From positions 11,811 through 75,810 of the forward strand of contig CAVBWZ010000012.1 in assembly GCA_963599445.1 (NCBI GenBank): DNA of 64,000 nt, written 5' to 3'. Source of the DNA: Bacteroidaceae bacterium (GTDB taxonomy: Bacteria; Spirochaetota; Spirochaetia; Sphaerochaetales; Sphaerochaetaceae). Shown here in pieces: positions 41,700 to 59,900 of the stretch; within the stretch, counting starts at the first letter, position 1; every line of letters begins with the position of its first letter. The notes under the pieces are model-generated. The model saw only the letters and a program-made list of their open reading frames with translations. It searched no databases and was not told the origin of the DNA. A program made the translations under genes and the position numbers.

Positions 41700-42482
41700 A
41701 TGAAGTTGATATATATCGTGGAAGACCATAGCGTGATAAGGGAGGGCGTGAGGAGATACCTTGAGCTTGCGGGATACAAGGCCATGTCGTTTCCAAATCT
41801 GGCCTCTGCCCGTGAGGCTTTCAGAATAAAGAAGGCCGACCTGTTGATTCAGGATGTCATGCTTCCTGACGGGGATGGATTCGAATTCGTGAAGGAGCTT
41901 CGCAGTACATGCGATGTCCCGGTCATCTTCATGACGGCAAGGATCGCCGAGGAGGACCGCATCCACGGCTTTGAACTTGGTGCCGACGACTATATAACCA
42001 AGCCTTTCTCTCCAAAGGAGCTGGTGCTCAGGGTCCAGGCGATATTCAGGCGCATAGACGGCACTTCCGTAGAAGACGGTGCATCAAACGGCGTTGTCTC
42101 CAGCCTGCGGTTCTTCAGGGCCGGCCCGTCTTCAATGCTTTTCAGCGAAGCCGAGCACCGCATCGAGGTCGATGGTGTTTCCATGTCGTTGACTGCGGCC
42201 GAGTGGCGAATATTGACGCTTCTTATCGAAAACTCAAATAGGGTCATTCCTAGGTCCGAGATGCTTCAGAAATGCTTCGACTATTCGTCTGAGGCCTACG
42301 AGAGGATCGTTGACACGCACATAAAGAACCTTAGGGCCAAGCTTGGCGATGCGCCTTGGATAGAGACCGTTAGGGGCTACGGCTACAGGTTCATAGGATA
42401 TGCATCCGAGCCTGGGCTGTCCGATGTGAAGAACGCATCCGGCATGAAGGGCGAATACGGAACAGAGGAAGAGGATAGATGA
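41700..42482 (+). CDS. OmpR-family response regulator
   Basis: Receiver domain (DLLIQDVMLPDGDG) plus winged-helix C-terminus (IETVRGYGYRF). Confidence 0.9.
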   Translation: MKLIYIVEDHSVIREGVRRYLELAGYKAMSFPNLASAREAFRIKKADLLIQDVMLPDGDGFEFVKELRSTCDVPVIFMTARIAEEDRIHGFELGADDYITKPFSPKELVLRVQAIFRRIDGTSVEDGASNGVVSSLRFFRAGPSSMLFSEAEHRIEVDGVSMSLTAAEWRILTLLIENSNRVIPRSEMLQKCFDYSSEAYERIVDTHIKNLRAKLGDAPWIETVRGYGYRFIGYASEPGLSDVKNASGMKGEYGTEEEDR

Positions 42483-44023
42483 AAAAGGCCTTCTTCAAGT
42501 ACTTCATAAGCATATTCTCCATAACCGTCGTGACGATCCTCCTTCAAAGCATCATCCTTGTGGTGCAGTATTCGCACAGCCAGACCAAGTGGAGGACCAG
42601 CGTCTACAACGATTTCGTGGATGCCTTGGAGGAGAGCATAGAAAGCGGACGCTTCAAGGACTTTGGCCTTGGAAGCCTGAGGCTTATAATGTCGTCCTTG
42701 GATGACAACAGGGTATCGGGCTACGTGGTCAGAGACACCAAGGGCAGTACAATGTTCACCTTTGGAAAGACATCAGAGGGCAGGATGCTTGCAGCCATAC
42801 TTCCTGCCGACCAGGAGCCATCGGCCTCATCTGCATCAGATGGAAGGCTCATGTCCACGGATTCTCACAACACGGTGAGGCTCAACGTCGTGTTCTCGGA
42901 CGATTCCCTGGAAAGCGTGGAGGGCTCGGATGCCTTTGTCCTGTCCAGCGATGCAGACAGCTTCATGGTCGTGGAACGAAAATCCCCCTACGGCAAGTAC
43001 CAGACGTATCTTGTTCTCCCAAATGCAATAAATGCCGATGACATAGTGGGTTCCATAACATTGGCCTTCGAAGGGGAGGATCTTTTCATAATAGACCTTT
43101 TGACATACTCCCCAAGGACCTACGCCTACTCCAAGGATGTCTTCGACTCCTGTCTTAGAGGTGTGGTGGTGTCGATTCCTGTGTGTCTTGTAATAGCATT
43201 GATCGCCGCATGGGTCATAAGCTCCCGTAACATAAGGTTCATAGACAACGTGCGCAATGCATTGAAGAAACTGGCAAGGGGAGAGACCAATGTCAAGCTT
43301 GAGCGCAACCACAACAGCGAGCTTGATGAGATCTCCATTGCCGTAGAGGACCTGGACGAGGAGCTTCAGAAGAACGCCATGAGCCGTAGGGCTTGGCTCA
43401 GCAGTATATCCCATGACCTCAACACACCGGCAAGTGCAATCAAGATGATGGTGGACGGCATGGGTGACGGAGTGTTCCCTCTTGATGAAACATCAATTGA
43501 GGAGCTTCGCAGGGAATCCGATACCCTCAACGAGCGTATAGGCAAGGTCATAGACTTCTCCTCCATGCAGGCGGACTCTACGCCCGTCATAGACGAGGTT
43601 CCCGTGGCGGTGCTTGAGAACTGCATAGTGAACAGTCTTCCTTTCCTGAAGGATGGCTCCAGACATGTAACGTTTGAGCATGTTTCAGACAATGTGAAAT
43701 GCGATGTGGTACTCATGACACGTGCCTGCATGGAGCTTATAAAGAACGCATTCGAATATGGAGAGGTCGATGGTCCTGTCGTCCTCCGCGCAGGAGAAGA
43801 CGCCCGTGGTTGCTTCGTATGCGTAGAGAACAAGGGCTCTATTCCAAAGGACATCGAGGACGGAAGCTTCCTTGAACCTTGGATAAGGGGTGACTGGTCC
43901 AGAACCAGAGGTGGTTCAGGCCTTGGCCTTCCAATAGTATGCACCGTAGCCAGACTCCACGGCGGGGCTGTGGCTTTGGAGAATGTGGAAGGCGGTATGG
44001 TGAGGGCTACGATTCGTTGGTAG
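42479..44023 (+). CDS. sensor histidine kinase
   Basis: H-box SISHDLNTPASAI, N-box and G2 GGSGLGLPIV. Two TM segments flank a sensor domain of about 190 aa. Start overlaps the regulator stop. Confidence 0.9.
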   Translation: MKKAFFKYFISIFSITVVTILLQSIILVVQYSHSQTKWRTSVYNDFVDALEESIESGRFKDFGLGSLRLIMSSLDDNRVSGYVVRDTKGSTMFTFGKTSEGRMLAAILPADQEPSASSASDGRLMSTDSHNTVRLNVVFSDDSLESVEGSDAFVLSSDADSFMVVERKSPYGKYQTYLVLPNAINADDIVGSITLAFEGEDLFIIDLLTYSPRTYAYSKDVFDSCLRGVVVSIPVCLVIALIAAWVISSRNIRFIDNVRNALKKLARGETNVKLERNHNSELDEISIAVEDLDEELQKNAMSRRAWLSSISHDLNTPASAIKMMVDGMGDGVFPLDETSIEELRRESDTLNERIGKVIDFSSMQADSTPVIDEVPVAVLENCIVNSLPFLKDGSRHVTFEHVSDNVKCDVVLMTRACMELIKNAFEYGEVDGPVVLRAGEDARGCFVCVENKGSIPKDIEDGSFLEPWIRGDWSRTRGGSGLGLPIVCTVARLHGGAVALENVEGGMVRATIRW

Positions 44024-44061: not shown

Positions 44062-46386
44062 TCAGGCCTTGAACCTCTTGAGGCTCAAGGCGTTGAGCAC
44101 GACGGACAGGCTTGAAAGGCTCATGCACAGCGCCGCTATCATTGGATCAAGCGTTGGTCCTCCAAACAGTGTGAGAAGTCCCGCCGCAACTGGAATTCCA
44201 AGCGTATTGTAGAAGAATGCCCAGAACAGGCTGTGTTTTATGTTCCTGATGGTCGCTCTGCTAAGGCGTATTGCAGTAGGTACTGAGTTGAGGTTGCTGT
44301 TCATGATCACAACGTCTGCAACCTGCATTGCGGCATCCGTTCCACAGCCCATTGCAATGCCTATGCCTGCTTTTTCAAGGGCAGGTGCATCGTTTATGCC
44401 ATCGCCAACCATTATGCTGTCCTTTGCCTTTTCTATGAACGAGAGCTTGTCCTGTGGCATGAGCGATGCATGGAAACCGTCAAGACCCGCCTGCTTTGCA
44501 ATGACTGCGGCTGTCTTCTGGTTGTCTCCTGTAAGCATGGTGGATTCAAGTCCAAGCCCACGGAGCTTTGCAACCGCTTCCTTCGCCTCCGGCCTCAAGG
44601 TGTCCTCTATCATGACAAGTCCCTTGTACTGACCGTTGAGCGCAACGTATATCTGAGCTTGGGCGTCCTCCTTTGGCATCTCTATGTTGTTGTCCTCCAT
44701 GAGGGCTCTGTTTCCTGCAAGGATCACACCCTCTGGAACGGTCGCCCTTATGCCTTTGCCTACTATGGCTTCGAAGGAGACGCCTTCAGCGGAGTCTGAA
44801 GCTCCGAGTCTTTCTATCGTGCAGCTTTGGTCGCATTCTTTGCCTTCGTTTCCATTGTTTCCATTGCCGCCCTCTATGGCGTTCTTCGAGGCTTCGTCCT
44901 CGTATGCTTCAAGGATGGCCTTTGCGTAGGGGTGTTCGGATCTGCGCTCGGCCAATGCGGCTAAGCGGAGCGTGCCAAAATCGGTATAGAATGAGACTTT
45001 GGGCTTTCCTTGGGTCAGAGTCCCTGTCTTGTCGAACATGACGGTTTTCATGCTGGATAGCTGTTCGAGGGCCTGTGCACTGCGAAAGAGTATTCCAAGT
45101 GAGGCCGCCTTGCCGGTCGAGACCATTATTGCAATTGGGGTGGCAAGTCCAAGTGAGCATGGGCAGGCTATGACGAGTACGCTTACGGCGCACCTAAGGG
45201 CGAACGAGATGTCTCGTCCTGCAAGAAGCCATGCAACGAGGGTGACAAGCGAGATCGACATGACGATTGGCACGAACACTCCCGATACCTTGTCCGCAAG
45301 CCTTGCTATTGGGGCCTTGGATGCCTGTGCCTGTTTGACCATCTCTATGATGGATGAGAGGACAGTGTCCTTGCCTATCTTCTGCGTTTTGAATATGAAC
45401 GAGCCGTTGGTGTTTATCGTGGCGCCCCATACCTGAGAGCCAACCGTTTTGGATACGGGTAGGCTTTCGCCCGTGAGCATGCTTTCGTCTATGTCGCTTG
45501 CGCCTTCCACCACGATTCCGTCTGCGGCTATCTTCTCGCCGGGATGCACCAGAATGAGGTCGCCAACCGCTATGTCCTTTGCGTCTATCTCAACGTTCTT
45601 TCCGTCCTTGACAAGCGTGGCCTTGGCCGGTGCAAGGTTCATGAGGCTTCGTATGGAGTCGCCGGCCTTCCTTCTTGACCTGAGCTCTATGTGCTTTCCC
45701 ACCATCACCAGCGTGATTATCATTGCCACGCCCTCAAAGTATAGGTGAGGGTGCTCCATTGCCATGCCCGCCATCTCCATTGCTTCCATCGTGTGGCCCA
45801 TTGCCATGTGCTGGGCCGCTGTTTGTGCCGCCTGGGCATTGGCTACCGTAGTCTGTATGAGGTTCACAAGGCTGTACACAAAGCTCGCCGTCGCACCCGT
45901 GGCCACAAGGCTGTCCATGTTGGGCTGTAGCTTGAACAGGTTGAAGAACCCCTTGGTGAAGAACGTGTAGCCCGCAATCATCACCGGTATGCATAGGGCC
46001 ATCTGGATCCAGCCCGATGTCATTGGCATTGACGGCACCACCATGGGACCCATGCACAATATGAAAAGCGGAACGGTGAACGCAATGCAGGTGTAGAGCC
46101 TTATGAGGTGCATCCTCTCGCTTTTCTTCTCCTGCCTTGATTCCTCGTCGCTCATGCCTCCTTGGCTATCGTCCTGCGGTGGGAGAAGCTGGAATCCAGC
46201 TTTCTTCACTATGCTTTGAAGTTCTTCGAAGGAGACCTTCTCTTCGTCGTATACTATGGTGGCTTCTTCGGCTGCAAGGCTCACCTGGGCGCTTTCCACG
46301 CCTTCCTTTCTTGAAAGTACCCTTTCCACGGATGCACTGCACGCCGCGCAGCTCATCCCTTTGACTCTGCAAATGACTTTCTTCAT
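44062..46386 (-). CDS. copA: copper-translocating P1B-type ATPase
   Basis: N-terminal [14 protein letters not shown] in TM6, DKTGTLT phosphorylation site, GDGINDAP hinge, and a Met/His-rich loop. Confidence 0.9.
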
Positions 46387-46469: not shown

Positions 46470-46556
46470 ACAAGCTCTGTATGATTGCTGTCGTGTGGGT
46501 TGAACCACGATTTTTGTTTGGCTGGCATCGTCGATGTCCTAGCAAAGGAGAGTACT

Positions 46557-47390
46557 ATGGATTTCAAAAGAATTCTTACAATTCAGGACATTTCATGTGT
46601 AGGACAGTGCTCACTCACCGTTGCACTTCCAATACTCTCCGCCTGTGGGCTTGAGACTGCAATCCTTCCTTCCGCGGTTCTTTCGACGCATACCGGAGGA
46701 TTCACCGGCTACACATTCCGCGACCTCACGGACGATATACCAGCCATAGCTGCGCATTGGGAGAAGGAAGGCATTGGCTTCGATGCCGTCTACACCGGTT
46801 ATCTTGGAAGCTCAAAGCAGATTTCATACGTCATGGACATCATGTCATCTCCTCTTATGAATGCAGGGGCTTTGAAGATCGTCGACCCAGCCATGGCTGA
46901 CAACGGTACCCTCTACTACGGCTTCAACAATGCCTTCGTAAAGGAAATGAAGAAGCTTTGCTCAGTTGCCGACTTCGTCCTTCCCAACATAACGGAAGCC
47001 TGTTTTCTTACAGACCACGAGTACAAGGAAGTCTATGACGAAGCCTATATAAAGGGTCTTCTTGTAGAGCTTGCCTCATTCTGCAAAGGTACGATTGTTC
47101 TCACAGGTGTGAGCTACGACAGCGCTTCTACAGGTGTCGTCGTCTACCATGACGGCAAGATGGACTACTACCGCCACGTCAAGATAGAGGGTGGCTGCCA
47201 TGGAACAGGCGACATCTACGCCTCTGCATTCGTTGGAGCCCTCATGAACAGCCACGATGCGGTTTCATCCGCCAAGATAGCCGCTGACTACACTGTCAAG
47301 TGCATAGAAGTCACTCAGAGCGACAAGGACCACTGGTACGGAGCCCGCTTTGAGCCGGTGTTGGGCTCTCTCATCTCCGCAGTAAGGTAA
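46557..47390 (+). CDS. pdxK: pyridoxamine/pyridoxal kinase
   Basis: ILTIQDISCVGQCSLTVALPILSACG start and GTGDIYASAF ATP-site motif. ATG 46557 follows AAAGGAGAG. Confidence 0.85.
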   Translation: MDFKRILTIQDISCVGQCSLTVALPILSACGLETAILPSAVLSTHTGGFTGYTFRDLTDDIPAIAAHWEKEGIGFDAVYTGYLGSSKQISYVMDIMSSPLMNAGALKIVDPAMADNGTLYYGFNNAFVKEMKKLCSVADFVLPNITEACFLTDHEYKEVYDEAYIKGLLVELASFCKGTIVLTGVSYDSASTGVVVYHDGKMDYYRHVKIEGGCHGTGDIYASAFVGALMNSHDAVSSAKIAADYTVKCIEVTQSDKDHWYGARFEPVLGSLISAVR

Positions 47391-49399: not shown

Positions 49400-49627
49400 A
49401 TGGACACTGCAAAGGTTTTCGAAAACGGGAGGAGCCAGGCTGTAAGGCTTCCAAAGGATTTCAGATTCAAGGAGGACGAGGTGTTTGTGAATAAGATTGG
49501 TGATGTTGTGTTTTTGGTTCCAAAGGACAGCCCTTGGAGTGGGACCATGGCTGGTCTTGCAATGTTCTCTGGCGATTTCATGGAGGGCGGACGCAACCAA
49601 GGGGAGTTCGATGAAAGGTCGCTATGA
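49400..49627 (+). CDS. vapB: type II antitoxin VapB (AbrB/SpoVT fold)
   Basis: [19 protein letters not shown] is the canonical AbrB-type VapB start. Overlaps vapC by 4 nt. Confidence 0.85.
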
Positions 49628-50022
49628 GATACATGCTTGATACGAATATTTGCATATATGCAATAAAGAAGAGTCCAAAGAGTCTTTTGAATAGGCTTTC
49701 ACGTTGCGAGCCGGGGGACTGCTGCATCTCGTCCATAACTTTCTCCGAGCTTATGTATGGAGTGGAGAAAAGTTCGTCGCCAGAGAGGAATCGCATGGCT
49801 CTTGCATTGTTCCTTTCCTCCTTGGAGGTCCTTTGTTTCGATTCCAACGCTGCAATAGAGTTTGGGGACATCAGGGCTTCTTTGGAGAGAAAAGGACTTC
49901 CTATAGGACCAATGGACACCCTCATAGCAGCACATGCACGTTCGAGAGGGCTTGTGCTTGTGACTAACAATGGAAGGGAGTTCTCTAGGGTGGATGGTCT
50001 TTTGTTGGAGAATTGGGTGTAG
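49624..50022 (+). CDS. vapC: type II toxin VapC (PIN-domain ribonuclease)
   Basis: [10 protein letters not shown], the acidic PIN residues and C-terminal LVLVTNN.EF. Confidence 0.9.
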
Positions 50023-50277: not shown

Positions 50278-50874
50278 ATGGAAGAAAAGAAGAACATCGG
50301 CAAGCTGCTTTTGGGTGAGTGGAACACGAAGACGATTGTTGCCGTCGCTGTTGGTGCAGCTCTGTTCGGAGTCCTTATGTGCTACGGTGGAATCCCTGTA
50401 TTCACGAATACGAGCCTTACGACCGCAATGCTTGTGCCTGTCATCGTAGGCGGTCTCTTTGGACCTCTTCCTGCATTCGTCGCAGCAGGCGTGGGCAACG
50501 TGATCGCTGACCTCATCGGCGGTTGGGGAATGTGGTTCGACTGGTCCGTTGGAAACGCCGTCATGGCTTTCTGCGTTGGACTTCTTCCAGTCTACGGTGC
50601 AAACATCAAGGAAGGCGTGTTCGAAGTCAAGCACATGATCATCTATGCAATATGCTGCATTCTTGGAAACGTGATTTCGTTTGGAGTCATAACACCAATC
50701 TTCACGGTTCTCTTCTATGGTGGAGACCTTGAGGTTACGTTCCTCCAGGCTTTCGCCGCAACCGTTGGAAACTTCGCAGTTCTGGTCGTGGTTGGCATAC
50801 CTGTACTCAAGGTCCTTGCAAACCGCTACAAGTCAAGGTCCAACCTGGCTCAGGAGCACAGTGACAACTACTGA
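50278..50874 (+). CDS. ECF transporter S (substrate-capture) component, specificity unknown
   Basis: 198 aa with about 6 TM. Gly-rich helices are typical of S components. ATG 50278 follows TTGGAGG. Followed by ECF A and T genes. Confidence 0.7.
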   Translation: MEEKKNIGKLLLGEWNTKTIVAVAVGAALFGVLMCYGGIPVFTNTSLTTAMLVPVIVGGLFGPLPAFVAAGVGNVIADLIGGWGMWFDWSVGNAVMAFCVGLLPVYGANIKEGVFEVKHMIIYAICCILGNVISFGVITPIFTVLFYGGDLEVTFLQAFAATVGNFAVLVVVGIPVLKVLANRYKSRSNLAQEHSDNY

Positions 50875-50890
50875 TCCTGTTCTGTGGATT

Positions 50891-50922
50891 GGGGCTGTTG
50901 TATGGCAACAGCCCCTTTTTTT
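50891..50922 (+). terminator. strong rho-independent terminator between the S gene and the ATPase gene
   Basis: GGGGCTGTTG / CAACAGCCCC perfect 10-bp stem, 5-nt loop, then TTTTTTT. Confidence 0.75.
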
Positions 50923-51009
50923 GGTTTTCCGTTCGATTGCTTGGAGATTGCTTGGGCAATTGGACGAGGAAGCTTTGACATCATCCAAAAACAATGATAG
51001 GAACGATCA

Positions 51010-52806
51010 ATGGCTGATACGGTAATCAGATTCAAGGACTTTGGGTTCCAGTACAAGGTTCAGCAGAAACCTACGCTGTACGATATAAACCTGGAGATTC
51101 ACAAAGGGGAGAAGGTCCTGATCCTTGGAGGGTCAGGCAGTGGAAAGTCCACATTGGCCAACTGCATAAACGGTCTCATCCCATTTTCATACGAAGGAAC
51201 CATAACGGGGTCCGTTGAGGTCAACGGACATGAAACCAAGGGTTCTTCCATATACAAACTCAGCAAGGAAGTTGGAACGGTCCTCCAAGACAGCGACGCC
51301 CAGTTCGTTGGCCTTTCGGTTGCTGAAGACATAGCCTTTGCAATGGAGAACGAGTGCATACCGCGTTCCCAGATGGTCCCCATCGTTGAGGAGCATGCCG
51401 CAACGGTTGGCATGCAGGACTTCCTTAAGGCTGTGCCGTTCGACCTTTCAGGAGGTCAGAAGCAAAAGGTTGGCATTGCAGGTGTCCTTGGAAGCAACGT
51501 GGACATCCTCATATTCGATGAGCCTTTGGCGGCTTTGGACCCCAGAATGGGTGAGACGGCCATAGAGCTCATAGACCAGCTTGCTCAGGACAAGGACAGG
51601 ACTATAGTCATCATAGAGCACAGACTGGAGGATGTTCTTCATAGACGAGTGGACAGGATCATCCTCATGTCGGAAGGCCGCATAGTGGCGGACACGACAC
51701 CGGATGACATCCTCAAAGGCACGCTTCTTCAGCAGTATGGCATCAGAGAACCGTTGTACATAACCGCAATGAAGTATGCCGGCTGCGATCTTGAAGGAAA
51801 CGATGGCCTAAGCAGCATAGACAATGTGGTATTCTCTAATGAAAGCCGTGAAAGACTCCTCCGTTTCTTTGAGAGCGAGGTTGAATCGCACGAGCCTCAT
51901 CCTGGCGACGAACTTGTATCCGTGAAGGATGTGTCCTTCTCCTACGATGACAGCCGCAAGGTCCTTGAAGACGTTTCGTTTACAATCCGCAAAGGCGAAC
52001 GCATAGCCGTAGTTGGCAGAAACGGTGCTGGAAAGTCCACGGCCGCAAAGCTCATATGCGGAATCTGCCGTCCAAACAAGGGTTCCATAACCATAGACGG
52101 CAAGGATGCCAAAGGTCTTTCCATAAAGGAGATTGGAGAGCGCGTTGGCTATGTCATGCAGAACCCCAACCAAATGATCGTGAAGGACACCATAAAGAAC
52201 GAGGTCGAATATGCGCTTACGCTGCGCAACATGCCAAGGGAGCAGATAATAGCCCGCGCAACGGATGCACTCAATGCCTGCAGCCTCTTTCCAATGCGCA
52301 ACTGGCCTGTGGATACGGTGAGCTATGGTCAGAAGAAAAGGATAACGGTTGCATCCATACTGGTGCTTCAGCCAGATGTGATAATCCTTGACGAGCCGTC
52401 TGCCGGTCAGGACTACAGAAGCTACACGGAGATCATGAAGTTCCTCGACGTCCTAAACAAGGAGTACGGCAAGACCATCGTGTTCATAACCCATGACATG
52501 CACCTCGCTCTGGAGAACACTGACAGAGCCATAGTCTTCACTGATGGAAGGCTTCTCAAGGACGACAGGACGTTTGCAGTGCTTGCGGACAACGATACAA
52601 TAGAAAAGGCCAACCTCAAGCAGACATCCCTCTACAGACTTGCCCAAAGGCTTGGACTCGAACCTGAAAGGGTCATACGCCATTTCATAGACTATGAGAA
52701 CTACAAAGGCCGCAAAGGCTCAAAGCCTGAAGCAATGCTTGAAGACGGAGAACCTGAAACTGTAGAACCCATAGGCCAGAATGCAAAGGAGGGAGAACGG
52801 TCATGA
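51010..52806 (+). CDS. ECF transporter duplicated ATPase (EcfA-EcfA' fusion, YkoD-like)
   Basis: Two ABC cassettes: [21 protein letters not shown] and GRNGAGKST/VSYGQKKR/LDEP. Confidence 0.9.
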   Translation: MADTVIRFKDFGFQYKVQQKPTLYDINLEIHKGEKVLILGGSGSGKSTLANCINGLIPFSYEGTITGSVEVNGHETKGSSIYKLSKEVGTVLQDSDAQFVGLSVAEDIAFAMENECIPRSQMVPIVEEHAATVGMQDFLKAVPFDLSGGQKQKVGIAGVLGSNVDILIFDEPLAALDPRMGETAIELIDQLAQDKDRTIVIIEHRLEDVLHRRVDRIILMSEGRIVADTTPDDILKGTLLQQYGIREPLYITAMKYAGCDLEGNDGLSSIDNVVFSNESRERLLRFFESEVESHEPHPGDELVSVKDVSFSYDDSRKVLEDVSFTIRKGERIAVVGRNGAGKSTAAKLICGICRPNKGSITIDGKDAKGLSIKEIGERVGYVMQNPNQMIVKDTIKNEVEYALTLRNMPREQIIARATDALNACSLFPMRNWPVDTVSYGQKKRITVASILVLQPDVIILDEPSAGQDYRSYTEIMKFLDVLNKEYGKTIVFITHDMHLALENTDRAIVFTDGRLLKDDRTFAVLADNDTIEKANLKQTSLYRLAQRLGLEPERVIRHFIDYENYKGRKGSKPEAMLEDGEPETVEPIGQNAKEGERS

Positions 52807-53723
52807 ACAATAGGTTTCTGATAAACTTCACCCCCGGCAACACGATGATGCACAAGCTTACAGGAGGCACCAAGGTTCTGCTGTTCGTGCTGTTTACGGT
52901 TGCCATAATAGCTACGTTCGATGTAAGGGTCATAGCTCTTCTTGCCATCCTGCCAATAGCCGCAATCATATCGATGAAGCCCAACTACAAGCCAATAAGG
53001 TTCATGATAGGCTTCATGGTGCTGGTGGTTGGCGTGATAGGTTCGCTCATGCTTCTGCTTGTATCTCCTGATGCAGGACTTACAAACGTTGGCGGCAGCA
53101 CCGTGATATGGCGCCTTGGAGAGAACTTCTTCGTCACCAAGGAGACCCTTTGGTACATATTCGCAATGTTCGTCAAAAGGCTTGCCTCGTTCATGGTCGT
53201 CATAGCCTTCGTGCTTGCAACGACTCCAAGCGAGTTCGCATCGGGCTTGGCCTTCCTGCACGTACCATACAAGGTGTGCACCATCGTCTCCCTTGCATAC
53301 AGGACCATCCCCGACATAGCAAGACGCTACACGGACATAAAGAACAGTATGCAGATGCGCGGCGTGGAGCTCTCGAAGAAAGCCTCCCTTGGAAAGAGGC
53401 TCAAGGCCACCGCAGCGTTGTTGGTTCCGCTTGTCGTATCATCGTTTGGCAAGGTGGAGGTCATAGCCAACGCAATGGACCTCAGGGGTTTTGGACGCCT
53501 CAAGAAAAGGACTTGGTACTCCGAGCACGAACTCACCAAGGCTGACAAAGTTCTGAGGAAGCTTTGCATCCTGTTCGCAGTTGGAATCGTGGCCTACATC
53601 GTATGGTTCAGAATCATAAATCCATGGCCTGTAACATATTGGAGTCCATTCATCGCCCGCAAGGACATAGTCAAGGTAGGGCGTTTCGAAACCCTGTCCA
53701 TCCTCAAGTGGTTTGGCAAATAG
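52803..53723 (+). CDS. ecfT: ECF transporter transmembrane (T) component
   Basis: Polytopic membrane protein with the two x-R-G coupling motifs (MQMRGV, MDLRGF). Start overlaps the ATPase stop. Confidence 0.85.
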   Translation: MNNRFLINFTPGNTMMHKLTGGTKVLLFVLFTVAIIATFDVRVIALLAILPIAAIISMKPNYKPIRFMIGFMVLVVGVIGSLMLLLVSPDAGLTNVGGSTVIWRLGENFFVTKETLWYIFAMFVKRLASFMVVIAFVLATTPSEFASGLAFLHVPYKVCTIVSLAYRTIPDIARRYTDIKNSMQMRGVELSKKASLGKRLKATAALLVPLVVSSFGKVEVIANAMDLRGFGRLKKRTWYSEHELTKADKVLRKLCILFAVGIVAYIVWFRIINPWPVTYWSPFIARKDIVKVGRFETLSILKWFGK

Positions 53724-53759
53724 GCATCACGACAAGGCCGCTTCAACAAGGAGTTCGCA

Positions 53760-54599
53760 ATGAAGAGAGCAATAGTACTACAGACCGATTTTGGCGAAGG
53801 CAGCGTATCGGTATCCACAATGAAGGGTGTCTGCAGAATCGTCGATCCAACGCTTGAGGTATTCGATTCAACGCACAGCGTAAGGCAGTTCGATGTCCTC
53901 AAGGCAAGCGACGCCCTGTTCTACGTGATACCTTTCTGGCCTGCCGGGACTGTGTTCGTATCCGTCGTCGATCCAGGGGTTGGAACGTCCCGCAGATCGT
54001 GCGTTGCGCTTTTGGAGAACGGAAGCTACGTTGTGACTCCGGACAACGGTACGCTCACATACATGAAGGATAGGATTGGCATAAAGCAGGTTAGGGAGAT
54101 AGACGAGTCCGTGAACCGCTATCCAACGACCCGTGACGTACACATCTTCCATGGAAGGGATGTCTATGCCTATACCGCCGCCCGTCTTGCGAGCGGGGTG
54201 ATCGACTACGAGGGTGTAGGTCCTGAATATCCTGTTGACCAAATCGTCGAAGCCCCTTATGTAAGGCCGGAGAAGAGGGCGGGCGAAGTCTACGGAATGA
54301 TCGCCGACTCCTCCAAGCACTTTGGACTTGTCACTACGAACATTCCGTTCCGCTGGCTGTCTGAATGCGGTATGGAATATGGCGACAACGTAAGGATACG
54401 CATCGAGCATGCAGGACAGTGCGTCCTTGAAGAGGTCGTCCCAATTGCAAAGAGCTTTGGATTCGTGCCCGATGGCAGCGATTTGGTCTACAACTCGGAG
54501 ACTTCCATGATAGAGGTTGCCACGAACCGCAGGAACATGGTCGTGGAACGCAATCTTGGAGATGGCGCGGACTGGACTCTAAGAGTTAGAAAGGTTTGA
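53760..54599 (+). CDS. DUF62 SAM hydrolase / SAM-dependent halogenase family protein, paralog 1 (motifs intact)
   Basis: LQTDFG, VVDPGVGTSRR, TPDNGTLT and FHGRDVYAY motifs. 279 aa. AAGGAG RBS. Confidence 0.85.
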   Translation: MKRAIVLQTDFGEGSVSVSTMKGVCRIVDPTLEVFDSTHSVRQFDVLKASDALFYVIPFWPAGTVFVSVVDPGVGTSRRSCVALLENGSYVVTPDNGTLTYMKDRIGIKQVREIDESVNRYPTTRDVHIFHGRDVYAYTAARLASGVIDYEGVGPEYPVDQIVEAPYVRPEKRAGEVYGMIADSSKHFGLVTTNIPFRWLSECGMEYGDNVRIRIEHAGQCVLEEVVPIAKSFGFVPDGSDLVYNSETSMIEVATNRRNMVVERNLGDGADWTLRVRKV

Positions 54600-54613
54600 A
54601 AGGAGCATTCGAT

Positions 54614-55450
54614 ATGGAGAACACAAGGAAATCGGTCCCAAATGGTGGACTTGTGGCCGTGCAGAGCGACTATGGCATGGGCGGTGAGGCCTGCAGGATC
54701 GTTGGCAGCATATTGTCTACAAGTCCAAACACGACCGTGTACGATGTGACAAGTGCAATTCCCAAAGGGGATGTCGCCACGGCTTCGTGTGCAATGTATT
54801 CGTTCTTCCAGTTCTTCCCTGTGGGAAGCGTGTGCCTTTCCCTTGTCGGCGAAGGAAGGCCTTGTGTCGTGAGGACTGCACAGGGACGGTACATAGTGAC
54901 GCCTGACAACGGCACGCTTACGGCTTGGTACTCCAAGTTCCCATTCGAGGACGTTCGTGAGGTTGACCTTGCCTGCGCACCTGATGGCTGCATCCCCCTT
55001 GCATGGGCCGCAGCCCGTCTTGCAAGTGGGAAGTGTTCCTTCGAGGACATGGGGCCTGCTTATCCTGCAAAGGACATAGTGCTCATCGACGCCAAGCCTG
55101 CAAAGGTTGGGGACGGCATTGTTGAGTGCGGGGTGTTCAGTCTTGTAAGGAACTTTGGGAACCTGAACCTGAGCGCCACATACGAGGAGTTCGAGAAGTC
55201 AGGCATACGCTTTGGAGACCATGTCAATGTTCTGATGCGTAGGGATGGTGATGAAATATTCAACGAGGATATGCTTTACGAGCATTCTTTTGGATTTGCA
55301 AAGCCAGGCGACCCGATCCTTTTCAATGGAAGCACCGGCTACATGGGACTGGGGCTCAATCTTGAAAGCTTCGTCTCCAAGTATATGCCTGAGTCAATGC
55401 AGGAAGGGTTCGACCTGTCTCGCTATGAGATTGTTATAAGAAGGATCTGA
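54614..55450 (+). CDS. DUF62 family protein, paralog 2 (catalytic motifs degenerate)
   Basis: Keeps SDYG and TPDNGTLT. Has SLVGEGRP where DPGVGTSR is expected and CAPDG where FHGRD is expected. Confidence 0.7.
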   Translation: MENTRKSVPNGGLVAVQSDYGMGGEACRIVGSILSTSPNTTVYDVTSAIPKGDVATASCAMYSFFQFFPVGSVCLSLVGEGRPCVVRTAQGRYIVTPDNGTLTAWYSKFPFEDVREVDLACAPDGCIPLAWAAARLASGKCSFEDMGPAYPAKDIVLIDAKPAKVGDGIVECGVFSLVRNFGNLNLSATYEEFEKSGIRFGDHVNVLMRRDGDEIFNEDMLYEHSFGFAKPGDPILFNGSTGYMGLGLNLESFVSKYMPESMQEGFDLSRYEIVIRRI

Positions 55451-55454
55451 AGAT

Positions 55455-56381
55455 ATGCAAGAGAATTGTGCAGCTAATCATGCAAATGCAGATAAGCCAG
55501 ACATCGTCCTCATGACGGACTTTGGACTTACGACGGGTTTCGTAGGTTCCATGTATGGGGTCATACGCAAAGTGGACCAGAGCCTTGGGGTGTTCGACCT
55601 GAACCATGAGATACGCCCATATGACATGCGTCAGGCTGCGTTTCTGCTTTCAGACACCGTCATGTACTGGAAGGACGGCACTGTGTTCGTGTCCGTCGTG
55701 GATCCTGGCGTTGGAACATCCCGTCGCTCGTGCGTGGCGCTTCTTGACAACGGAAGCTACATTGTCACACCTGACAACGGAACGCTCACTGCTGTGAAGG
55801 ACCATGTGGTTGCGGTTCGTGAGATAGACGAGAAGGTCAACCGCCTCTCTGGATCAGAGCGTGCCAACAGCTTCCATGGTCGTGATGTCTATGCCTATAC
55901 CGCAGCCCGTCTTGCAAGCGGAGTGATCGACTACGAGGGGGTCGGGCCTGAGTATCCTGTAGATGAAATAGTGCTGTTCCCACAGACCAAGGGCCACGTG
56001 GAACCAGGTCTTGCAAAGGGGCATCTCACAGGATGCCTCAAGCACTTTGGCTCCCCTGAGACCGATATTTCCGTGGTTGACTTCGAGAAGACCGGCATAG
56101 TGTACGGCGACATGGTCCATGTCCGCATTTCAAAGGGCGGAAGAGTTCTCTTCGATATGCCAGTGCTCTATCATAAGTCGTTTGGATTCGTGCCTGAAGG
56201 CGAGCCCATTCTGTGCAATGGAAGCACCAGCCCGTACATGGAGATAAGCCTTAACAAGCGCAGTTTCGCCCAAAAGTACCTTCCAGACATCTTCGATGAC
56301 GGGGAGGTGTTTACAGACTATTCTATCGAGATTTCAAAGCTATCGGGCTATGATGCCCCACAGCTTTCCAAGGAGGCGTGA
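55455..56381 (+). CDS. DUF62 SAM hydrolase / halogenase family protein, paralog 3 (motifs intact)
   Basis: MTDFG, VVDPGVGTSRR, TPDNGTLT and FHGRDVYAY. 308 aa. Confidence 0.85.
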   Translation: MQENCAANHANADKPDIVLMTDFGLTTGFVGSMYGVIRKVDQSLGVFDLNHEIRPYDMRQAAFLLSDTVMYWKDGTVFVSVVDPGVGTSRRSCVALLDNGSYIVTPDNGTLTAVKDHVVAVREIDEKVNRLSGSERANSFHGRDVYAYTAARLASGVIDYEGVGPEYPVDEIVLFPQTKGHVEPGLAKGHLTGCLKHFGSPETDISVVDFEKTGIVYGDMVHVRISKGGRVLFDMPVLYHKSFGFVPEGEPILCNGSTSPYMEISLNKRSFAQKYLPDIFDDGEVFTDYSIEISKLSGYDAPQLSKEA

Positions 56382-56382
56382 T

Positions 56383-56874
56383 ATGAAACCATTTGTCGTG
56401 ATGCAGACCGATTTTGGTGTAGGTGGCGGTGGTGCCATGTATGGCGTGTGCAAGACGATTGACCCTGACCTTGGAGTCTATGACCTGAGCCATGTCATTC
56501 CAAAGTTCAATGTGGAGGCGGCGTCCAAGTCCTTGGTGTCAGTGATTCCATACTGGCCCGTTGGAACCGTGTTCGTGTCCGTCGTGGACCCAGGTGTTGG
56601 AACATCAAGGTGCGCATGCGTTGCAAAGACATCCAACGGCTACTATGTGGTCACGCCTGACAACGGCACGCTTACGCTTCTCAAGAAGGAGTTTGGCATA
56701 GATGCAGTCAGGGAGATAGACGAGACGGTCAACCGTCTCAAAGGCACGGAGAAGACAAGCATCTTCCATGGCAGAGACCTCTTTGCATACTGTGCAGCCC
56801 GCTTGGCCTCTGGAGTGATAGACTTCGAAGGGGTAGGGCCGCAGTATCCAGTGGAGGAGATTGTACTTTACTAG
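56383..56874 (+). CDS. DUF62 family protein, paralog 4, N-terminal domain only
   Basis: 163 aa with QTDFG, DPGVGTSR, TPDNGTLT and FHGRD. Ends at ...YPVEEIVLY* where paralogs 1 and 3 continue into a C-terminal domain of about 110 aa. AGGAGG RBS. May be a truncation or pseudogene. Confidence 0.6.
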   Translation: MKPFVVMQTDFGVGGGGAMYGVCKTIDPDLGVYDLSHVIPKFNVEAASKSLVSVIPYWPVGTVFVSVVDPGVGTSRCACVAKTSNGYYVVTPDNGTLTLLKKEFGIDAVREIDETVNRLKGTEKTSIFHGRDLFAYCAARLASGVIDFEGVGPQYPVEEIVLY

Positions 56875-56924
56875 TTCAAGAGAGGCGTTTCAGAAAGTGC
56901 TTCAGAAGGCGAGTCCGTTGGATG

Positions 56925-57812
56925 TCAGGCCTTCTGGAGCTTTATGGCCCAGTTCTCGCCGGATCCAATCCTGTACTCCTGCGCAAAGCTTCCTTGGTTG
57001 AGTGCAAGGCCCACGTTCAAGAGACTGTTTATGTAAAGAAGCGGTTCGCCTATCTCCACCTCAGTGAAGTTCCTGCACATGCGCATCGTATAGCCAAAGA
57101 CTATCTTGTGGTTGTGGCTTATGAGAACCCTCACATCGTCTCCGTACTTGATGCCGTACTGCTCAAAGATCATGGTGTCAGGTATGTTCGTCCAAAGGCT
57201 GCCGTAGCGGGTGTCTAGGACGTCTATGTTTCCACAGACCTCTCCGCCTTCTATGACTGGGTCAGATACGTTGAGCATGACAGGGTTCGGTTCAAGGAGA
57301 GGTCCTACTTCGTCGAACGTTATGGTCCCGCTTGCAATCCTGGCTCCAGTGTATGCATACACGTCACGTCCATAGAATGTGAACGACCTTTGGCTGTTCT
57401 TGAGTCTGTTGACGGTCTCGCTTATCCTTCGCCTTTCAAGGATTCCAATCTCCTTTGCGACATGTGACAAGGTTCCGTTGTCAGGTGTTACTATGACGTG
57501 CCCTGACTTTGTAAGCACCGCCACGCTTTCGCGCTCCGATCCCACTCCTGGGTCTACGACTGATACGAAAACGGTTCCGGGTGCCCAGAACGACATCGTT
57601 TGTATGAGTCTGTAGCTTGCCTCCCATATGTTGAACTGGGGGATTTCATGCGTAAGGTCTTCAAGTTTGAGGTTATGGTCCACTTCGTCCGCAACTCCAT
57701 GCATGGCGCTCACAGCTCCGTCCACATATCCAAAGTCCGACATGAACACAACCGTACCCTTTTTCGTCCATGGTGCAAGCTCCTTGAGCTCCTTTGCGCT
57801 TTCGTATGTCAT
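56925..57812 (-). CDS. DUF62 family protein, paralog 5 (His to Tyr in the FHGRD motif)
   Basis: MSDFG, VVDPGVGSER, TPDNGTLS and FYGRDVYAY. ATG 57812 lies 7 nt after GGAGG; the ORF opens at 57932. Confidence 0.8.
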   Translation of the reverse strand: MTYESAKELKELAPWTKKGTVVFMSDFGYVDGAVSAMHGVADEVDHNLKLEDLTHEIPQFNIWEASYRLIQTMSFWAPGTVFVSVVDPGVGSERESVAVLTKSGHVIVTPDNGTLSHVAKEIGILERRRISETVNRLKNSQRSFTFYGRDVYAYTGARIASGTITFDEVGPLLEPNPVMLNVSDPVIEGGEVCGNIDVLDTRYGSLWTNIPDTMIFEQYGIKYGDDVRVLISHNHKIVFGYTMRMCRNFTEVEIGEPLLYINSLLNVGLALNQGSFAQEYRIGSGENWAIKLQKA

Positions 57813-57849: not shown

Positions 57850-58293
57850 TCATCGCCCAATGATTTTTTGGACCTCGCCGATGTCAAGTGAAGCACATTT
57901 TGCAATGGTTGGGATTGGGATTCCATTTGCATTCATCTCCTTGACCATGCGGCTTCTTTCGTTGGAGACACCTCTGGCCTCTCCAATGGAGATTCCCTCG
58001 GCCTCACCGGCGGTTCTACCCTCATCGTATTTGTCCTTTAGAAGGAACTCCAGCTTCATGTACTCTTTCCTCCAGTCGTCGTCTCTGTTGTACTTCTGCA
58101 CATATTTGTCCAGAATGGTCACAAGCCCGCTTCTGGTCTCCATGCCTATGGCTCCGACACCGCCGTTCAGATACCTGAACAGCTCGTCCATGTCCAGGTT
58201 GGAGACACCCTTGGAGCCTCTGCTGTTCAGGAACATGATATATCTACGGTCCCCAAGTGGCAAGCCTTGGACGTTCTCGCAGATGGTTGCAGC
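57850..58293 (-). pseudogene. C-terminal fragment of an Rpn/YhgA-like (PD-(D/E)XK) recombination-promoting nuclease/putative transposase
   Basis: ...CENVQGLPLGDRRYIMFLNSRG...REYMKLEFLLKDKYDEGR..GIPIPTIAKCASLDIGEVQKI matches the C-terminal half of the family. The N-terminal nuclease core is absent. Confidence 0.55.
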
Positions 58294-58424
58294 TAAGGAA
58301 CTGGAGGCTGATTGGCAAAGACATGTTGAGGACTAATACTAAAGATCAATCCAAACCGTTCTTGACGATGCAAAGGTCGACTGATACCATTGTAATTGAA
58401 AGCCCGAGAAAGAATAAATACAGG

Positions 58425-59900
58425 ATGGTGAAAACAATGATCGACCGCTGGATTGCGGAGGCGACCGAGTGTGATTTCAAGGTTGCCTTGGAGGTGAAAA
58501 AGCCGAAAAGCTGGCTCAAAAGTGTCAGTGCCTTTGCAAACGGCATTGGTGGAACGTTGTTTTTTGGTGTTGACAATGATAGGAATATTGTCGGTCTATC
58601 TGATGTGCAGAATGATGCTGAAACGATTAGTCGATTGATCAAAGAGCGGATTACACCTTATCCCGATTTTATTCTCAAACCAGAACGTAAGGACTGCGAG
58701 GATGTTCTTGTGTTGTCTGTGTCTGCAGGGCGCTCCACGCCATATTACTACAAGGCAGACGGTATTATGGAGGCCTATATACGTATCGGCAATGAAAGCG
58801 TGATTGCTCCGTCCTATGTCCTGAATCAACTCATTCTGAAAGGAATGCACCGTTCCTACGACGAATTGGTTTCCGAGTATTATTTCAATGATTACTCTTT
58901 TTCTAAATTACGTGAGCGCTATAAGGCTTGGACTGGTAATGGCATGGAGGAAAAGCTGTTCGATTCCTTTTGTATGCGGAACGAAAACGGCAAGTTGACC
59001 AATGCTGGTGCTCTGCTTGCAGATGATTCTCCCATCAGGCATTCCCGCCTGTTCTGTACGCGTTGGAATGGAATTGATAAAAGCGGTGGCGTAGTAGATG
59101 CACTTGACAGTGCAGAATACTCCGGCAGTCTGATTATTCTACTCAATGAAGGTGTCAGCTTTGTCAGGCGGAATATGAAGACACTTTGGAAGAAAACCAC
59201 TGATTCCCGCATTGAGATGCCTGACTACTGTGAGCGAAGCGTCTTTGAAGCTCTTGTGAATGCGCTGATTCATAGGGATTACCTGATTCTTGGCAGTGAG
59301 GTTCACATTGACATCTACGATGACCGCCTTACAATCTGTTCTCCTGGCGGTATGGCAGATGGTACCAGGATACAGGAACGAAATCTGCTCAGCATTTCCT
59401 CTACGCGTCGCAATCCCGTTTTGGCGGATATTTTTGGGCGATTGGGCTATATGGAGCGGCAAGGCAGTGGCTTTAGGAAAATCATGGAAACGTACCATGC
59501 TGCACACAATTATCATGACGAATTGGAGCCCCAATTCTATTCTGATGCTAGCTTCTTTCAAGTTACGTTGTATAACTTGAATTACGGGCAGGCAATCGAG
59601 AAAACAGGCCTTCAAGACGAAAAACAGGCCTTCGAAAATGAAAAAACAGGCCTTCAAGACGAAAAACAGGCCTTCGAGAACCTGCTGATGGGGCTTGAGA
59701 GCAGTACACCGACCAGGGAAAACATTCTGAAACTGTTCTTGCATTTCGGTTTCGGCAATGCTTTTGCAAGGGCCGATGTTATGAAGGTTACAGGAATAAC
59801 GGCTACCCCTGCAACGGAGCTTATGCGAAAGATGAAGGACGCAAAGTTGATCGAGAACGGAATGGGTCGAGGGAAATATGTTTTTACAGAACCTAAATGA
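58425..59900 (+). CDS. AlbA_2/Schlafen-like DNA-binding domain + HATPase_c_4 + wHTH protein ('RecG-like' putative transcriptional regulator)
   Basis: ECDFKVALEVKK...SAFANGIGGTLFFGVDNDRNIVGL (AlbA_2) and LVNALIHRDY...SPGG (ATPase-like). Start is 58425 or 58437. Codon usage is unlike the backbone. Confidence 0.7.
   Translation: MVKTMIDRWIAEATECDFKVALEVKKPKSWLKSVSAFANGIGGTLFFGVDNDRNIVGLSDVQNDAETISRLIKERITPYPDFILKPERKDCEDVLVLSVSAGRSTPYYYKADGIMEAYIRIGNESVIAPSYVLNQLILKGMHRSYDELVSEYYFNDYSFSKLRERYKAWTGNGMEEKLFDSFCMRNENGKLTNAGALLADDSPIRHSRLFCTRWNGIDKSGGVVDALDSAEYSGSLIILLNEGVSFVRRNMKTLWKKTTDSRIEMPDYCERSVFEALVNALIHRDYLILGSEVHIDIYDDRLTICSPGGMADGTRIQERNLLSISSTRRNPVLADIFGRLGYMERQGSGFRKIMETYHAAHNYHDELEPQFYSDASFFQVTLYNLNYGQAIEKTGLQDEKQAFENEKTGLQDEKQAFENLLMGLESSTPTRENILKLFLHFGFGNAFARADVMKVTGITATPATELMRKMKDAKLIENGMGRGKYVFTEPK
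59598..59681 (+). repeat. in-frame 2 x 42 bp tandem duplication (each itself 2 x 21 bp)
   Basis: GAGAAAACAGGCCTTCAAGACGAAAAACAGGCCTTCGAAAAT then GAAAAAACAGGCCTTCAAGACGAAAAACAGGCCTTCGAGAAC, encoding EKTGLQDEKQAFEN twice. Confidence 0.9.

Follow-up and report, generated by a model that had tools for sequence, protein, structure and literature searches.

Why should a bacterium keep five genes of one enzyme family side by side when one of the products lacks the catalytic residues, one lacks a whole domain, and one carries tyrosine in place of a catalytic histidine? The question is posed by a 64,000-nucleotide stretch of contig CAVBWZ010000012.1 (positions 11,811 to 75,810, forward strand; hereafter the window) from GenBank assembly GCA_963599445.1, which is named as a Bacteroidaceae bacterium and assigned in the GTDB lineage to the Sphaerochaetaceae, and in which five paralogs of the DUF62 family, here called P1 to P5, are encoded together. 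DUF62 enzymes convert S-adenosylmethionine (SAM) to adenosine and methionine (PMC10491745; PMC12120602); an Asp-Arg-His triad is specific to the family (PMC10491745), and the active sites lie at the protomer interfaces of a trimer (PMC12120602). These two papers bear out the background given in the initial annotation of the locus, namely the triad, the contrast with the halogenases, and the interface active site. Comparison with related loci indicates that P1 to P4 represent, in Sphaerochaeta, a module conserved more widely, whereas P5 is a separate gene, and the four genes very probably constitute a module maintained by selection. We moderately favor the interpretation that P1 to P4 form a DUF62 hetero-oligomer whose interface sites are unequal, and which would act on the cargo of an importer encoded in the same operon.

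A conserved operon in two phyla

Eight genes span positions 50278-57812: ecfS, a fused ecfAA', and ecfT, which encode an energy-coupling factor (ECF) importer, followed by P1 to P4 and then P5. The four genes P1 to P4 are co-directional, with gaps of 36, 14, 4 and 1 nt along the series ecfT-P1-P2-P3-P4, and neighboring array genes all lie in different frames, without a natural read-through fusion. P5 is convergent with this operon, lies 50 nt away from the stop codon of P4, and has a promoter-like site at 57887-57860. The initial annotation had omitted the transporter directly upstream, and it is this context that explains the array. The importer has the composition of a dedicated ECF system, with an S component (PF07155), a fused AA' ATPase (two PF00005 domains plus PF12558), and a T component (PF02361) contiguous in one operon. 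The closest public contigs are gut metagenome-assembled genomes of Sphaerochaeta and Spirochaetales, in which the counterparts of P2 are 93% identical, and ecfS of the window is 100% identical to the S component of locus L008.

Twenty species-level genome loci were retrieved through the P2 type, and three more were retrieved independently through proteins similar to paralog D (see below; queries P0348, P0360, and P0430 from Solobacterium); complete arrays number 23. The hosts of the 20 loci belong to the Sphaerochaetaceae, Christensenellaceae, Oscillospiraceae, Clostridia, and Mageeibacillus. The S-AA'-T genes are directly upstream of every array whose contig extends far enough, the order of the DUF62 genes is fixed, and the reading frames are intact in all 23. 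The S genes of the Bacillota arrays are 73-78% identical to ecfS of the window, and some array-type operons carry a divergent GntR/UTRA regulator. The assembly collection lists one of the array proteins, P0360, in 958 of its blocks, and the operon may thus be common in gut Bacillota.

A neighbor-joining tree of the N-domains resolves six clades, designated A (containing P1), B (P2), C (P3), D (P4), E, and P5, where clade E is a diverged protein of 145-166 aa with an N-domain only, encoded by the final gene of Bacillota arrays. The array composition is A-B-C-D-E at 13 Bacillota loci, A-B-C-D plus a D-like N-domain-only gene at two (L026 and L030, genes L026_6 and L030_5), A-B-C-Dn, with Dn an N-domain-only D, at seven Sphaerochaetaceae loci including the window, and A-B-Dn at L017. 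Consecutive array genes of L030 overlap by 4 nt. Although the arrays vary in size from three to five DUF62 genes, each of the 23 contains exactly one member lacking the triad and exactly one member with an N-domain only.

Catalytic motifs and domains of the paralogs

All five paralogs of the window match the DUF62 N-domain (PF01887; 63-158 bits, cut-off 26.3), and P1, P2, P3, and P5 also match the C-domain (PF20257; 34-68 bits, cut-off 25.5), which is missing from P4. Against the NCBIfam equivalog models for (R)-SAM hydrolases, which are archaeal and Thermus-specific, all five paralogs score below the cut-offs (best score 125.5 bits; cut-offs 350 and 470). An alignment of the five (A1) agrees with the motifs described in the initial annotation: P1 and P3 retain VVDPGVGTSRR and FHGRD; P2 is altered at both catalytic loops, with TPDNGTLT and the whole C-domain still present; in P4 the N-domain is complete, with VVDPGVGTSRC and IFHGRD, and the stop codon follows EEIVLY; and P5, on the opposite strand, has VVDPGVGSERE and FYGRD. 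P1 also carries NRYPTTRDVHIFHGRD and the C-domain motif HFGLVTTNI.

The equivalence of the substituted residues to the triad positions was confirmed by alignment to proteins with solved structures (2zbu, SalL, and ClA1). The FHGRD His pairs in the alignment with the His of the Thermotoga DUF62 protein 2zbu (FTFHGRD), and its position is that of Tyr130 of SalL (TWYGKD) and the equivalent Tyr of the chlorinase ClA1, while the Asp and Arg of DPGVGxxR align with Tyr72 and Thr79 of SalL. The triad is complete in P1, P3, and P4 (DPGVGTSR plus FHGRD, aligned to 2zbu) and is broken in P2 at both loops and in P5 by the His to Tyr change alone. P4 has SRC where its close relatives have SRR (56611-56619), a change that affects the second Arg and not the triad Arg; the SRC sequence is also present in L001, the single contig with an exact match.

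In P2 the Asp/Arg loop reads LSLVGEG--RP, with a 5-residue deletion and Gly in place of the Asp, and a 10-residue deletion removes NR..FHGRD from the His loop, leaving QSDYG in place. A database search with P2 recovered homologs ranging from 92% down to ~34% identity, all of which are without DPGVGxxR and have a 12-13 residue deletion replacing NR..FHGRD. They retain QSDxG, TPDNG, and LFNGSTGYMGLGLN, and have invariant C-domain motifs in common (NFGNLNL, SFGF, and LFNGSxGYxGxGxN). The B-type gene is the second DUF62 gene in every array. In an AlphaFold2 model of the P2 monomer (pLDDT 88.8) the two-domain fold is preserved, and the template-modeling (TM) scores to ClA1, SalL, 2zbu, and PH0463 are 0.70-0.76. 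The mean pairwise identities across arrays are 0.77 (N-domain) and 0.55 (C-domain) for paralog A, 0.75 and 0.62 for C, and 0.77 and 0.63 for D, compared to 0.44 and 0.50 for B, so that in B it is specifically the N-domain that has lost constraint. By these measures P2 is a protein with a pseudoenzyme-like N-domain joined to a conserved and constrained C-domain.

The best Bacillota matches to P4 are the full-length D paralogs of 276-281 aa, which are 73-80% identical to it over 162 residues and share with it the signature NRLKGTEKTSIFHGRDLFAY. N-domain-only proteins of the P4 type are present in all eight Sphaerochaetaceae arrays; the N-domain-only proteins in general end within a few residues of the inter-domain linker motif GVGPxYPVxEI, and no remnant of a C-domain was found downstream of P4 or its orthologs. 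P4 is thus a cleanly truncated D. The situation in the Sphaerochaetaceae would be accounted for by a single deletion that took out the E gene along with the C-domain of D. N-domain-only forms thus arose independently at least twice and probably three times, as E, as truncated D, and as the L026_6 and L030_5 proteins.

Several other unusual forms were encountered. P0197, P0198, and P0199 consist of a canonical D-like N-domain, a linker of ~40 residues, and a second, degenerate N-like domain without a C-domain; P0256 and P0284 are stand-alone N-domain-only proteins of 161 aa; and P0254 is a DUF62 protein fused to an alpha/beta hydrolase. The metagenomic locus L004 (5169-5732) has an N-domain-only D gene with a deviant, longer C-terminus (187 aa), and at L041 (652-1493), on a contig of 1.1x coverage, a DUF62 gene of the type present as a single copy is split into three open reading frames; both deviations are probably assembly errors or strain-level frameshifts. 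Many matches in a P4 search of 50% representatives are fragments at contig ends, which makes that search a poor source of counts of N-domain-only versus full-length forms.

The ECF importer and methionine

A connection between DUF62 proteins and ECF importers extends beyond the arrays. Single DUF62 genes adjoin the same ECF architecture in all four cases sampled (L032, L033, P0044, and P0073), and among 62 metagenome loci with S homologs of this single type, the S gene is immediately preceded by a DUF62 gene at ~30, while ~10 informative loci are without one. At ten loci the single-type operon is preceded by a T-box leader scoring 99-131 bits (gathering score 93): L036 (5674-5919), L037, L040, L045, L046, L051, L056, L058, L049, and L069, the last two of which have the T-box directly before the S gene and no DUF62 gene. 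In all ten, the specifier loop has GAA-[A/C]-AUG-[G/A] as its 3' strand just before the lower helix, the AUG being invariant while the flanks vary, and the antiterminator bulge reads UGGU, which would pair with a discriminator A and so fit tRNA-Met. With a Met-specifier T-box, these operons should be induced by methionine limitation, and because DUF62 converts SAM to adenosine and methionine, the simplest model for them would be uptake and cleavage of an adenosyl compound that yields methionine. The physiological role of DUF62 is debated, and one paper questions whether repair of (R,S)-SAM is its true function (PMC12120602); the ECF linkage provides a concrete hypothesis in the form of this uptake and cleavage. 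A solved homolog of the array-type S component was not found by sequence.

A predicted hetero-oligomer

Given active sites built at an interface, an obligate hetero-oligomer is the most economical reading of the array. A DUF62 site forms where the N-domain of one protomer meets the C-domain of its neighbor; here P2 would supply a C-domain half-site and no catalytic half-site, and P4 a catalytic half-site and no C-domain, such that one interface of the ring would be either silenced or put together from the products of two genes. The substrate would be the compound carried by the importer of the same operon, most likely an S-adenosyl sulfonium such as SAM, which would be cleaved to adenosine and methionine for salvage. 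The numbers of triad-bearing N-domains and of C-domains are consistent with this, being 3:3 in arrays of the window type and 2:2 in L017, and the dead paralog is under purifying selection (dN/dS, the ratio of nonsynonymous to synonymous substitution rates, is 0.06-0.10) and is co-inherited with active paralogs in 23 of 23 arrays.

The rates of evolution also bear on how P2 and P4 might be related. Among the 13 Bacillota arrays with an E gene, the divergence of B and of E is in each case roughly double that of A, C, and D. Partial Mantel tests, in which quadratic regression on the mean ECF distance removes the shared phylogenetic signal, show that E distances correlate with those of B alone (r = 0.42, p = 0.0016; r is -0.11 for A, -0.11 for C, and 0.15 for D). 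It is the N-domain of B that carries this correlation (r = 0.55, p = 0.0002), the C-domain giving r = 0.11, which is suggestive of the dead B N-domain and the N-domain-only protein evolving together. The proposal in the initial annotation that P2 and P4 could complement each other in heteromers is therefore sustained in part: that the two belong together has strong comparative support from their one-to-one occurrence in 23 of 23 arrays, from the independent origins of N-domain-only forms, from purifying selection, and from the rate covariation, whereas simple complementation of the N-domain of P4 by the C-domain of P2 is not favored by covariation that involves the B N-domain. Two arrangements are conceivable. 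The N-domain-only subunit could use the C-domain of B, or its missing C-domain could be the one that would have faced the dead N-domain of B, so that one site is eliminated from both sides.

Several observations weigh against a hetero-oligomer acting on SAM. In Bacillota the numbers of triad-bearing N-domains and of C-domains are only approximately equal, since in E the place of the triad Arg is usually taken by Gln or Glu; in the E-type proteins that differ in this way, Arg or Lys follows one residue later. A, C, and full-length D each have the triad and both domains, and could act as homotrimers. The covariation is drawn from 13 arrays and 18 tests, involves the N-domain of B and not its C-domain, and could simply reflect two relaxed, fast-evolving modules. 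The array paralogs do not have the Asp that stands three residues before the FGN/YGS motif in P5 and SalL, and their substrate may be something other than SAM. Finally, searches for an RNA leader (riboswitch, T-box, or S-box) at gathering or E-value thresholds found none upstream of the array operon in the window or at 14 further array-type loci, which makes the methionine model less certain for the window, and the array-type S component is only ~28% identical to that of the T-box-regulated type.

Some of these points lead to the strongest alternative, in which P1, P3, and full-length D are independent isozymes, separate homotrimeric hydrolases differing in substrate or stereospecificity, with P2 a ligand-binding protein, chaperone, or regulator, P4 a regulatory or capping fragment, and no mixed complex. 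We regard this as possible though rather doubtful. A, C, and D have complete triads, both domains, and loop signatures of their own before FHGRD that are conserved (NRYPTTRxIHI in A, NRLxGSxxxxT in C, and NRLKGTEKTSI in D), and P2 keeps TPDNG and the ribose-binding Asp (in QSDYG), all of which would suit such a division of labor. However, a lone N-domain-only protein cannot form a DUF62 site, and independent isozymes leave unexplained the strict 1:1 co-occurrence of B with an N-domain-only member, the repeated origin of N-domain-only forms, and the covariation of B and E rates.

The hetero-oligomer can be extended to a more specific proposal, which we put forward tentatively: complementary losses would have produced an obligate asymmetric ring, coupled to an ECF importer, hitherto unrecognised, that would carry SAM or some similar adenosyl-sulfonium compound, and many bacterial DUF62 proteins would serve salvage rather than, or besides, repair of (R,S)-SAM. 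If true, the salvage would be of methionine and adenosine from an imported substrate.

P5 and the His to Tyr substitution

P5 falls among generic DUF62 proteins, in a large clade apart from those of the array, and is the ordinary single-copy DUF62 of the Sphaerochaetaceae, whose native partner is probably a related ECF transporter. At the triad His position its 120 closest homologs (68-99% identity) have Tyr in 67 cases, His in 49, Gln in two, and Phe in two, and a neighbor-joining tree of the P5 homologs requires at least about 11 switches at this position. The P5-like genes of L032 (FYGRD) and L033 (FHGRD) are convergent to an S-AA'-T operon, as P5 is here, and the ECF proteins beside them are ~28% (S), ~51% (AA'), and ~35% (T) identical to those of the window. 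The repeated exchange of His and Tyr and the shared genomic position mark Tyr as a common and apparently tolerated variant, and P5 most likely represents a recurrent form compatible with normal function. The His of the triad, described as strictly conserved, thus proves dispensable or replaceable in a large clade. The retained position of P5, the different ECF subtype beside it, and the 73-78% identity of the S component to Bacillota counterparts suggest that a horizontally acquired array-type operon replaced a native ECF operon adjacent to P5.

The initial annotation had proposed that the His-less P5 may use a different nucleophile, and a changed chemistry, either halogenase-like or hydrolytic with another nucleophile, was considered. 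The P5 Tyr does align with SalL Tyr130 and the equivalent ClA1 Tyr (FYGRD versus WYGKD), and purifying selection on P5 is very strong (dN/dS 0.013-0.016). P5 nonetheless retains the Asp and Arg at positions lost in the halogenases (SalL Tyr72 and Thr79), scores only 82.5 bits against the TIGR04507 fluorinase model (cut-off 400), lies in the generic clade among homologs that toggle repeatedly between His and Tyr, and has both Tyr and His counterparts at the equivalent position beside the same ECF type (L032 and L033), such that a changed chemistry seems improbable. A halogenase identity was rejected, since the Tyr is present but so are the Asp and Arg, and the fluorinase cut-off is missed.

At L032 (2482-4705), on a Spirochaetales-like contig, a homoserine O-acyltransferase (HTS family) and a Cys/Met pyridoxal-phosphate enzyme adjoin the P5-like DUF62 gene and its ECF genes.

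Selection on the five genes

Values of dN/dS were obtained by the Nei-Gojobori method against L008 and L007 (Table 1), while dS is saturated in comparisons of the window with L009-L017, which are thereby unusable. For L009/L010, an independent pair, the ratio is 0.096 in P2 and 0.058 in P4. With ratios of 0.01-0.10, all five genes are under purifying selection. Neutral or frameshifted orthologs of P2 and P4 would have counted against the functional interpretation in the initial annotation, and the arrays instead contain intact frames under purifying selection. The other possibility raised there, that tandem duplication left P2 and P4 as decay products, pseudogenes in the course of being lost, is rejected as extremely unlikely, for although P2 is the fastest-evolving member (34-43% identity between phyla, compared to 58-80% for the others) and P4 is without half of the protein, dN/dS lies between 0.04 and 0.10 (0.06-0.10 for P2 and 0.04-0.06 for P4), orthologs are retained across two phyla where those of P2 have their own invariant motifs, the P4 N-domain is the most conserved among the paralogs and is truncated exactly at the domain boundary with no remnant, and the frames are intact in 23 of 23 arrays.

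Gene map and neighboring genes

The features of the locus and its surroundings are listed in Table 1. The terminator-like hairpin between ecfS and ecfAA' is a putative attenuator, which could tune the ratio of the S component to the ECF module by limiting read-through. A toxin-antitoxin pair resembling VapBC lies directly upstream of the ECF operon and is missing from the corresponding place in a close relative, L003. Beyond P5 is a gene for a Schlafen-type protein with an internal tandem duplication, in which KTGLQDEKQAFEN occurs twice. Synteny of the pyridoxamine kinase, copper P-type ATPase, and two-component genes farther upstream is limited to the closest relatives (L003, L007, and L008), and these genes have no evident link to the array.

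Table 1. Features of the DUF62 locus and its surroundings in the window, with dN/dS of the DUF62 genes against two related loci
Feature	Coordinates	Strand	Description	dN/dS vs L008	dN/dS vs L007
Two-component system	41700..44023				
Copper P-type ATPase	44062..46386				
Pyridoxamine kinase	46485..47390				
VapBC-like pair	49400..50022	+	MazE-like antitoxin and PIN toxin		
ecfS	50278..50874	+	Array-type substrate-capture component; PF07155 105 bits; NF010182 128.7 bits (cut-off 99)		
Terminator-like hairpin	50891..50915	+	Between ecfS and ecfAA'; 11-bp stem with 7 GC pairs, then TTTTTTT		
ecfAA'	51010..52806	+	Fused duplicated ECF ATPase with DUF3744 linker domain; 2x PF00005 + PF12558; TIGR04520, TIGR04521		
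ecfT	52803..53723	+	Transmembrane coupling component; PF02361 CbiQ; start overlaps ecfAA' stop by 4 nt		
P1 (paralog A)	53760..54599	+	Full-length DUF62, complete triad; 279 aa; N + C domains; orthogroup A	0.05	0.07
P2 (paralog B)	54614..55450	+	Full-length, triad-less; 278 aa; weak N domain (63 bits) + C domain	0.076	0.058
P3 (paralog C)	55455..56381	+	Full-length DUF62, complete triad; 308 aa; N + C domains; orthogroup C	0.086	0.062
P4 (paralog D)	56383..56874	+	N-domain only; 163 aa; SAM_HAT_N (PF01887) alone; ends EEIVLY, stop	0.056	0.036
P5	56925..57812	-	Generic single-copy DUF62, FYGRD variant; 295 aa; N + C domains; separate clade	0.016	0.013
Schlafen-type protein	58257..59900	+	AlbA_2 + HATPase_c_4		

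Comparison with known systems

A literature search, whose scope stopped short of the comparative-genomics papers of 2004 and 2009, found no paper joining DUF62 or SAM hydrolases with ECF transporters, describing arrays of DUF62 paralogs, or reporting an ECF-type SAM importer. The closest relatives by fold and Pfam families are the DUF62 SAM hydroxide adenosyltransferases and (R)-SAM hydrolases (PH0463, MJ1651, StDUF62, and SaciSAMH), which share both with the array proteins. The PH0463-type hydrolases have the triad as it occurs in P1, P3, and P4, and the known enzymes have their active site at the protomer interface of a trimer, but they are homo-oligomers encoded by single genes, whereas here three to five co-evolving paralogs are tied to an ECF importer, and P2, P4, and P5 each lack one defining feature of the characterised hydrolases. 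The halogenases SalL, ClA1, and FlA have the same fold, P5 has the Tyr of SalL and ClA1, and P2 resembles them in being without the triad; P5 differs in keeping the Asp and Arg, and P2 in having its loops deleted rather than substituted and in motifs unlike those of the halogenases. The array is also relevant to the engineering of biocatalysts of the fluorinase and chlorinase types.

The importer resembles the group I ECF systems with a duplicated ATPase (YkoEDC, MtsTUV, and HtsTUV), in which an S component, a fused AA' with DUF3744, and a T component are encoded in one operon as here; a methionine leader like that of MtsTUV is present on the related single-DUF62 type and absent from the array type. 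The family names MtsTUV ('methionine-regulated') and HtsTUV (unknown substrate) are those of the TCDB tables cited in PMC3654945.

The array provides a natural case of a pseudoenzyme and a half-enzyme kept 1:1 in a fold with interface active sites, and should be useful for studying how homo-oligomers evolve into hetero-oligomers. The closest functional analogy may be to the prozymes of trypanosomatids (AdoMetDC/prozyme and the deoxyhypusine synthase paralog pairs), in which a dead paralog is selected beside active ones, and where, the active sites of the heteromers being at interfaces, the dead subunit can still provide half a site. The fold and the organisms differ from those of the prozyme systems, and the predicted array complex would have an additional half-length subunit.

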